Of a stretch of DNA of 64,000 bases, positions 44,795 to 45,084 are shown piece after piece. The stretch comes from a plasmid. Each line of letters begins with the position of its first letter. The first letter of the stretch is position 1. The translations under genes were made by a program, and so were the position numbers. The notes below the pieces were generated by a model. That model saw nothing but the letters and a program-made list of their open reading frames with translations, was not told where the DNA came from and made no database searches. Location of the stretch: the NCBI RefSeq assembly GCF_054482525.1, contig NZ_JBTHVG010000007.1; one strand, written 5' to 3'.

Positions 44795-44890
44795 CCTTTA
44801 ATCATTGCTTTGCATATTTTCATTTAATCTTGCATTTTATTGCAAAGCAACAACAAAATTGCAAAGTAGTCAAAAAACCGCAAAGTTGTT
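44795..44890 (-). promoter_or_regulatory. sopAB promoter/operator
   Basis: repeated CTTTGC/GCAAAG motifs in an AT-rich region upstream of sopA. Confidence 0.55.
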
Positions 44891-45084
44891 TAAAATGAGA
44901 GCAACACATCAAAAAAGGAAACAGGAAGAGCACATACCTCAGTCAATAATTATCACTAGTACTCGTAGCCGTCGTGTAACCGAGCGTAGCGAGCTAACTG
45001 GCGAGGACGCGCGCTAACTGTTCACACTCAGTATCCCTAGCACCAAAATAACTATCTGATGGTCAAGGCGGTAATGACTCCAAC

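Follow-up and report, generated by a model that had tools for sequence, protein, structure and literature searches.

An F-type sopABC partition cassette abuts the IS1-bracketed aerobactin/sit island of a probable RepFIB/FII-driven virulence plasmid

Results and discussion

The 64,000-nucleotide stretch of plasmid DNA analysed here, referred to below as the window, very probably carries the left edge of an IS1-bracketed island beside an intact F-type sop cassette, on a plasmid from which the RepFIA replicon is gone and whose replication is driven by RepFIB and FII. The segment at 44795-45069 is the complete sopAB promoter/operator together with a 59-bp spacer, and it abuts the left-hand IS1 of an aerobactin/sit island. 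The coordinates of all features are given in Table 1.

Table 1. Features of the sop cassette, the IS1-bracketed island and the RepFIB region in the window
Feature	Coordinates	Strand	Basis
sopC centromere	42085..42557	-	11 tandem 43-bp repeats; Tandem Repeats Finder: period 43, 11.0 copies, 91% matches
sopB, ParB-type centromere-binding protein, 323 aa	42648..43619	-	311/322 identical to F SopB (97%)
sopA, type Ia ParA ATPase/autorepressor, 388 aa	43619..44785	-	387/388 identical to F SopA (99%)
sopAB promoter/operator region, F-homologous	44786..45010	-	88% identical to F (198 positions; 225 bases in the window, 223 in F)
Lineage-specific spacer, 59 bp, origin unassigned	45011..45069	.	Separates the F-like sop promoter DNA from IS1
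IS1 copy A, 768 bp, complete	45070..45837	-	Sequence and Pfam
insA of copy A	45507-45782		Sequence and Pfam
insB of copy A	45085-45588		Sequence and Pfam
Virulence cargo between the IS1 copies	45838..61319	- except MFS transporter	ORFs; RefSeq annotation of identical relative
iutA	46267-48468	-	ORF; RefSeq annotation of relative; Pfam for IutA
iucD, iucC, iucB, iucA	48550-54301	-	ORFs; RefSeq annotation of identical relative
MFS transporter	54374-55567	+	ORF; Pfam
crcB, sitDCBA	57570-61019 (sitDCBA)	-	ORFs; RefSeq annotation of identical relative
IS1 copy B, inverted relative to copy A	61320..62087	+	768/768 identical to copy A (BLAST)
Gene remnants between IS1 copy B and RepFIB	62088..63379	.	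ORFs; no F homology (BLAST)
umuC/impB-like C-terminus remnant	62252-62641	-	Pfam IMS_C and DUF4113
HTH-only ORF	62899-63255	-	Generic HTH Pfam matches only
RepFIB origin/promoter region	63380..64000	+	621 bp, 93.9% identical to the F DNA immediately preceding the RepB-family initiator gene
RepFIB DnaA box, consensus, TTATCCACA	63625-63633		Within RepFIB origin region
RepFIB GATC cluster	63647-63701		Within RepFIB origin region
RepFIB iterons, five, 21-22 bp	63745-63852		Within RepFIB origin region

Organization of the sop cassette and the adjoining island

The window contains the sequence features of an F-type SopABC system (type Ia ParABS), namely SopA, SopB, an array of 43-bp sopC repeats and a four-hexamer operator. 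SopA matches the Pfam families AAA_31/CbiA and possesses an N-terminal MerR-like HTH, as in a large ParA-type Walker ATPase, and SopB, which is encoded immediately downstream, matches SoPB_HTH (E 6e-42). The sopC centromere falls inside a block that is 92% identical to the F sop region by BLAST, and contains 11 repeats of 43 bp compared with 12 in F. The SopA-binding hexamers (CTTTGC/GCAAAG) lie at 44808, 44842, 44861 and 44880, and the same four are present in F. A simple consensus scan of 44700-45200 returned no minus-strand sigma-70 promoter, and so the integrity of the sopA promoter rests on its homology to F. The likeness to F thus spans both proteins, the 43-bp repeats, the four hexamers and about 225 bp upstream of sopA, and an earlier reading of this DNA, made from the sequence alone (the sequence-only reading), was right to describe sopABC and the operator repeats of sopA as intact. 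The same reading placed IS1 about 275 bp upstream of sopA. The position of the element at 45070 is confirmed, but the distance is 275 bp only from an upstream in-frame ATG at 44794; it is 284 bp from the ATG at 44785, which is equivalent to the start in F and is the start annotated in RefSeq relatives.

The left-hand element, IS1 copy A, encodes InsA and DDE_Tnp_IS1 (the IS1 DDE transposase) by Pfam and has the ends GGTAATGACTCCAAC... and ...GTTGGCAGCATCACC, and the terminal inverted repeats together with insA and insB identify it as IS1. Its IRR end faces sopA, and its transposase reads toward sopA in the same orientation as sopA. Between copies A and B lie iucABCD-iutA, which are bracketed by inverted IS1 copies and adjoin a replication region, as is characteristic of an aerobactin island. 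That the two copies are identical here, while the sopA-side copy of p1658/97 and pETN48 diverges slightly from them (below), suggests that gene conversion or exchange between these anchors may have taken place in the ColV lineage. Beyond copy B, the patch of gene fragments extending to RepFIB suggests a trace of earlier rearrangements at that spot. One of these fragments, the HTH-only ORF, presumably represents the N-terminal part of an IS21-type IstA, as read from its translated sequence; Pfam gave only generic HTH matches.

An IS21-family element is present elsewhere in the window, in the leading region on the minus strand (35973-37774), with tra/leading-region genes on one side and psiA/ssb on the other. 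Its products are IstA (340 aa; rve and HTH domains) and IstB (260 aa; IstB_IS21, E 8e-112), and it may explain length differences of about 0.7 kb between the window and otherwise identical plasmids.

RepFIA is absent and RepFIB and FII are present

In F (NC_002483), the gene order is ori2-repE-incC-sopA. The distance to sopA is 588 bp from the end of repE and about 340 bp from the last incC iteron. When 15 kb of F (40000-55000, from pifC to beyond sopC) was compared with the window by BLAST, the only match was F 9570-12518 (locus coordinates), with 92% identity, which corresponds to the sop promoter through sopC. No match to ccd, resD, ori2, repE or incC was found in the window by this comparison, and no counterpart of the F iterons was found upstream of sopA by alignment; neither repE nor the 19-bp iterons (incB/incC) by which RepFIA is recognised is therefore present there. 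The sequence-only reading had taken the RepFIA genes to be missing beside sopA, in agreement with this result. It had also stated that no replication functions lie beyond IS1 in the window, which is contradicted by the RepFIB origin region, 94% identical to F, at the right-hand end.

The window ends one base before the start codon of RepFIB repA, which itself lies outside, as judged from relatives. The start codon of the repA CDS in p1658/97 abuts the base aligned to window position 64000, and in relatives that are 100% identical over the queried stretches the record starts with repA at base 1 and ends where the window ends. Because many matching database records are rotated to start at repA, the window probably represents the final 64 kb of one such record. 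At the opposite side, finO is followed by FII-type copB/tap/repA1, 3-4 kb past the left end of the window, in a relative that matches window 1-25000 with 100% identity. The relatives that were checked and are 100% identical over the queried stretches are typed IncFIB, IncFIC and rep_cluster_2244, and IncFIA is absent from their typing. The plasmid therefore appears to replicate from RepFIB and an FII/FIC-type replicon, the position and typing of the latter being read from relatives, and from the same relatives RepFIA is probably absent from the remainder of the source plasmid. This agrees with the earlier suggestion that the plasmid relies on another replicon. The placement of that replicon outside the window is correct for FII, which in the relative lies beyond the left end, but not for RepFIB, which lies partly inside, with its origin region at the right-hand end.

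The frame surrounding the missing replicon is collinear and co-oriented between F and the window, with RepFIB on one side of a gap and sop on the other. The gap is 11.3 kb in F (38239-49565) and contains pif, ccdAB, resD and ori2-repE-incC, with repB leftward and sopA rightward, whereas in the window it is 18.4 kb (45011-63379) and contains gene remnants, IS1, sitABCD, iuc, iutA, IS1 and the 59 bp.

F homology ends at a palindromic element before IS1

A comparison of the sopA-upstream junction with F, which the sequence-only reading had proposed, gave homology as far as about 45010; the next 59 bp, up to IS1, are not F DNA. The window differs from F in lacking incC, repE and ori2, and the homology reaches only about 225 bp upstream from sopA; the break lies at 45007-45010 by BLAST and alignment. 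The similarity of the 59 bp to the equivalent F DNA is not significant, with 172/2000 shuffles scoring as high. IS1 copy A is not seated in recognisably F-like DNA, because the 59 bp up to IS1 have no detectable relation to F. A distant-mode BLAST of 45008-45069 found the spacer in 588 PLSDB plasmids, solely in the sopA-IS1 context, and neither an IS1-free (empty) site nor another continuation of the spacer was found in PLSDB or in a scan of metagenome contigs.

The distal end of the sop promoter region (about 44958-45010) is a degenerate, GC-rich palindromic element of about 48 bp, and the break in F homology coincides exactly with its distal edge. The motif is an imperfect palindrome (GCTCGCCGCAG...GGCGAGGAAGC) with predicted folding at -14 to -25 kcal/mol. 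Better copies are present in F left of ori2 and between incC and sopA (locus coordinates 8031-8078 and 9567-9616), where the element brackets the RepFIA basic replicon in inverted orientation. The palindrome is also found upstream of RepFIB repA, at 63492-63537 in the window and at about 5070-5130 (locus coordinates) upstream of RepFIB in F. The element might be a boundary for the exchange of replicon and partition modules, or a priming signal. A literature search for a described role as a primosome assembly site or ssi near mini-F ori2 gave nothing usable; a study by Imber, Low and Ray from 1983 may offer a lead on its function in that context.

The position of the break, the recurrence of the palindrome around RepFIA and upstream of RepFIB repA, and the lack of significant F similarity in the 59 bp are all compatible with a cassette exchange, in which this sop allele was never beside RepFIA. 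A sopABC module bounded by the palindrome would have recombined beside the 59-bp DNA, and IS1 would later have truncated the latter. The sop region is moreover a distinct allele, with 92% DNA identity to F overall and 88% in the promoter region. However, the DNA on either side of the gap keeps the order and orientation seen in F, for which an F-like ancestor with an internal replacement is the simpler explanation, and no plasmid in which the 59 bp run into other DNA was found in PLSDB or the metagenome scan. Such an exchange before the arrival of IS1 is a reasonable, though rather unlikely, alternative origin of the junction.

IS1 flanks are inconsistent with a recent simple insertion

The flanks of IS1 copy A are GGTCAAGGC and TTTATTCAT, and those of copy B are GAAGGGATC and TGCTTTTTC. 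No 9-bp (occasionally 8-bp) target duplication was found among the four flanks when compared in direct and inverted sense. The lack of a target duplication indicates later rearrangement, and not that the element is something other than IS1. The sequence-only reading described IS1 as inserted upstream of sopA, and a recent simple insertion is not upheld: a 9-bp duplication, an empty site and a reciprocal junction were all lacking, and 59 bp of non-F DNA separate the element from the F-like region.

The flanks also bear on whether RepFIA was moved rather than lost. IS1 could have inserted between incC and sopA, and an inversion or translocation could then have carried an intact RepFIA elsewhere on the plasmid. 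Inversion is mechanistically possible, because the two IS1 copies have opposite orientations and share 100% of their sequence, and pETN48 (NC_014615.1), which has the same junction, is also typed IncFIA, with RepFIA and the sop locus coexisting at non-adjacent positions; the IncFIA replicon was not found in the 90-137 kb region of pETN48 that was inspected. However, no duplication pairs any two of the four flanks in either sense, and the reciprocal junction expected from an inversion, queried as a 32-mer of the IS1 IRL end plus GGTCAAGGC, is absent from PLSDB, where the best matches (30/32 bases) are at the level of chance. An intact repE/ori2 directly past the island, which would have implied rearrangement rather than loss, was looked for, and the DNA found there is RepFIB; the relatives that were checked also lack IncFIA. 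Relocation of an intact RepFIA is accordingly considered highly improbable.

Distribution of the junctions and variation of the cargo

The sopA-side junction, queried as 200 bases spanning 45069/45070 at full length, is present in 585 PLSDB records, and the 190-bp stretch upstream of sopA, at a coverage of at least 80%, is present in the same number. Because these counts are equal, the sop-upstream variant in PLSDB always occurs with IS1 and never with an empty site. The junction was also found in 597 of 5,426 complete E. coli genomes (about 11%), and an exact 45-mer ending at the junction was found in eight metagenome contigs, all of which (8/8) continue into IS1. The junction on the RepFIB side (62087/62088) is present in 1060 PLSDB records, and the F-type incC-sopA junction, which the present lineage has not retained, in about 1654 PLSDB plasmids. 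The sopA-IS1 junction is an old, fixed boundary common to approximately 600 sequenced plasmids.

The DNA between the two junctions varies. The multiresistance F plasmids p1658/97 and pETN48 possess sopA-59 bp-IS1 and RepFIB-IS1 junctions identical to those of the window but differ in cargo. p1658/97 has the order RepFIB, IS1, 4.4 kb of other genes, IS1 and sopA, without sit or iuc, and the inner flank of its IS1 B lies at window position 57338, so that sit is deleted. pETN48 has the order RepFIB, IS1, sitABCD, other genes, IS1 and sopA, without aerobactin. The sopA-side IS1 in these two plasmids is approximately 98-99% identical to the window copies and is annotated IS1B rather than IS1A (locus coordinates 23085-23852 in p1658/97). 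A 50-kb plasmid of Salmonella Infantis (NZ_CP129388.1, 4063-5425) has the sopA-59 bp-IS1 junction joined straight to pemK/pemI and FII repA, and looks like an IS1-mediated deletion derivative in which RepFIB and the whole virulence island were lost and sopABC was kept.

Composite transposons built from IS1 are familiar from examples such as Tn9, and the two identical IS1 copies around cargo genes would suit an active composite transposon that recently hopped as an IS1-island-IS1 unit into a site beside sopA. Yet the outer flanks, GGTCAAGGC and TGCTTTTTC, do not form a duplication, and the outer junctions stay constant (in 585 and 1060 records) as the cargo changes, the reverse of the pattern expected from a mobile unit. 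The RepFIB-side junction is also commoner than the sopA-side junction, and so the two ends are not always found together. There is very little likelihood that the island arrived in this way. Constant outer junctions around changing inner DNA are the pattern that results from adjacent deletions anchored on IS1 and from recombination between IS1 copies.

Most likely, the RepFIA segment of an F-like ancestor was deleted or replaced through the action of IS1, after which the two IS1 copies would have stayed as fixed anchors while the DNA between them was repeatedly remodelled. An ancestor in which this sop allele is preceded by DNA free of IS1 was not found in PLSDB or the metagenome scan. At the position of the spacer the ancestor, although F-like, may already have been different from F, because the 59 bp beside IS1 are not F-like.

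Comparison with known virulence plasmids

The window shares its architecture with ColV/ColBM-type plasmids (pColV-K30, pAPEC-1, pAPEC-O1-ColBM and pS88-like), in which inverted IS1 copies surround iucABCD-iutA, with sitABCD in addition. As in the window and its relatives, these plasmids have RepFIB directly past one IS1, sopABC downstream of tra, and a combination of FII/FIC and FIB replicons, and the junction DNA is the same in hundreds of records. The published description of pAPEC-1 gives repFIIA-repFIC and repFIB as its replicons, places an entire sopABC downstream of tra, and has RepFIB adjoining sitABCD; pAPEC-O2-ColV has been reported to be without sopABC (PMC2626276). According to Perez-Casal and Crosa (1984), as cited in PMC9828833, the aerobactin genes of pColV-K30 lie between inverted IS1 elements and replication regions. 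The architecture is therefore ordinary and was already known from ColV-K30 in 1984 and pAPEC-1 in 2009, and the window is a typical member of the ColV/ColBM-type (FII-FIB) virulence plasmids, with no difference of substance.

Partition function and implications

The function of Sop in this plasmid is inferred from the 97-99% identity of its proteins to those of F and from established knowledge of Sop. SopA would autorepress Psop at the four CTTTGC hexamers, SopB would load on sopC, and SopA-ATP on the nucleoid would position the SopB-sopC complex. None of these steps should need RepE or ori2, and the cassette would be expected to segregate a plasmid replicated by RepFIB and FII/FIC. Sop is reportedly able to stabilise oriC plasmids, a finding attributed to Ogura and Hiraga in 1983. 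The general description of the locus is of a single autoregulated promoter upstream of sopA and 43-bp sopC repeats (PMC9178275), and partition complexes also assemble on parS_F when it is moved to the chromosome (PMC6238139). There is no known mechanistic dependence on RepE/ori2, because the sop cassette is complete and partition complexes form wherever sopC is placed. The sequence-only reading held that the partition system may be uncoupled from its cognate replicon; this is correct in that RepFIA is absent, but the functional dependency it implies is not a known one, as sopABC acts in cis through sopC. sopABC is best regarded as a self-contained, replicon-independent type Ia cassette, for which the uncoupling from RepFIA would be a matter of neighbourhood and not of function, without mechanistic cost.

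On the sopA side, the ParB_F signal of F is stopped by RepE bound to incC and ori2 (PMC6238139). The loss of RepFIA may have dropped this RepE-iteron roadblock, in which case SopB would spread over IS1 into iutA/iuc, which lie 2.5-4 kb from sopC and whose expression it could then influence. Separately, the palindrome may mark module boundaries or act in priming. Both ideas are speculative and are considered unlikely.

For ColV/ColBM-like and related F plasmids, the sopA-59 bp-IS1 junction is a handy lineage marker, and the IS1-anchored gap is a hot spot for the exchange or loss of cargo such as aerobactin, sit and other genes. In annotation, the presence of sop here should not be taken as a sign of an IncFIA replicon. 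From the biology of Sop, a sop-bearing, FIA-negative plasmid would nevertheless be expected to be incompatible with F-like FIA plasmids via sopB/sopC, despite their different replicons.
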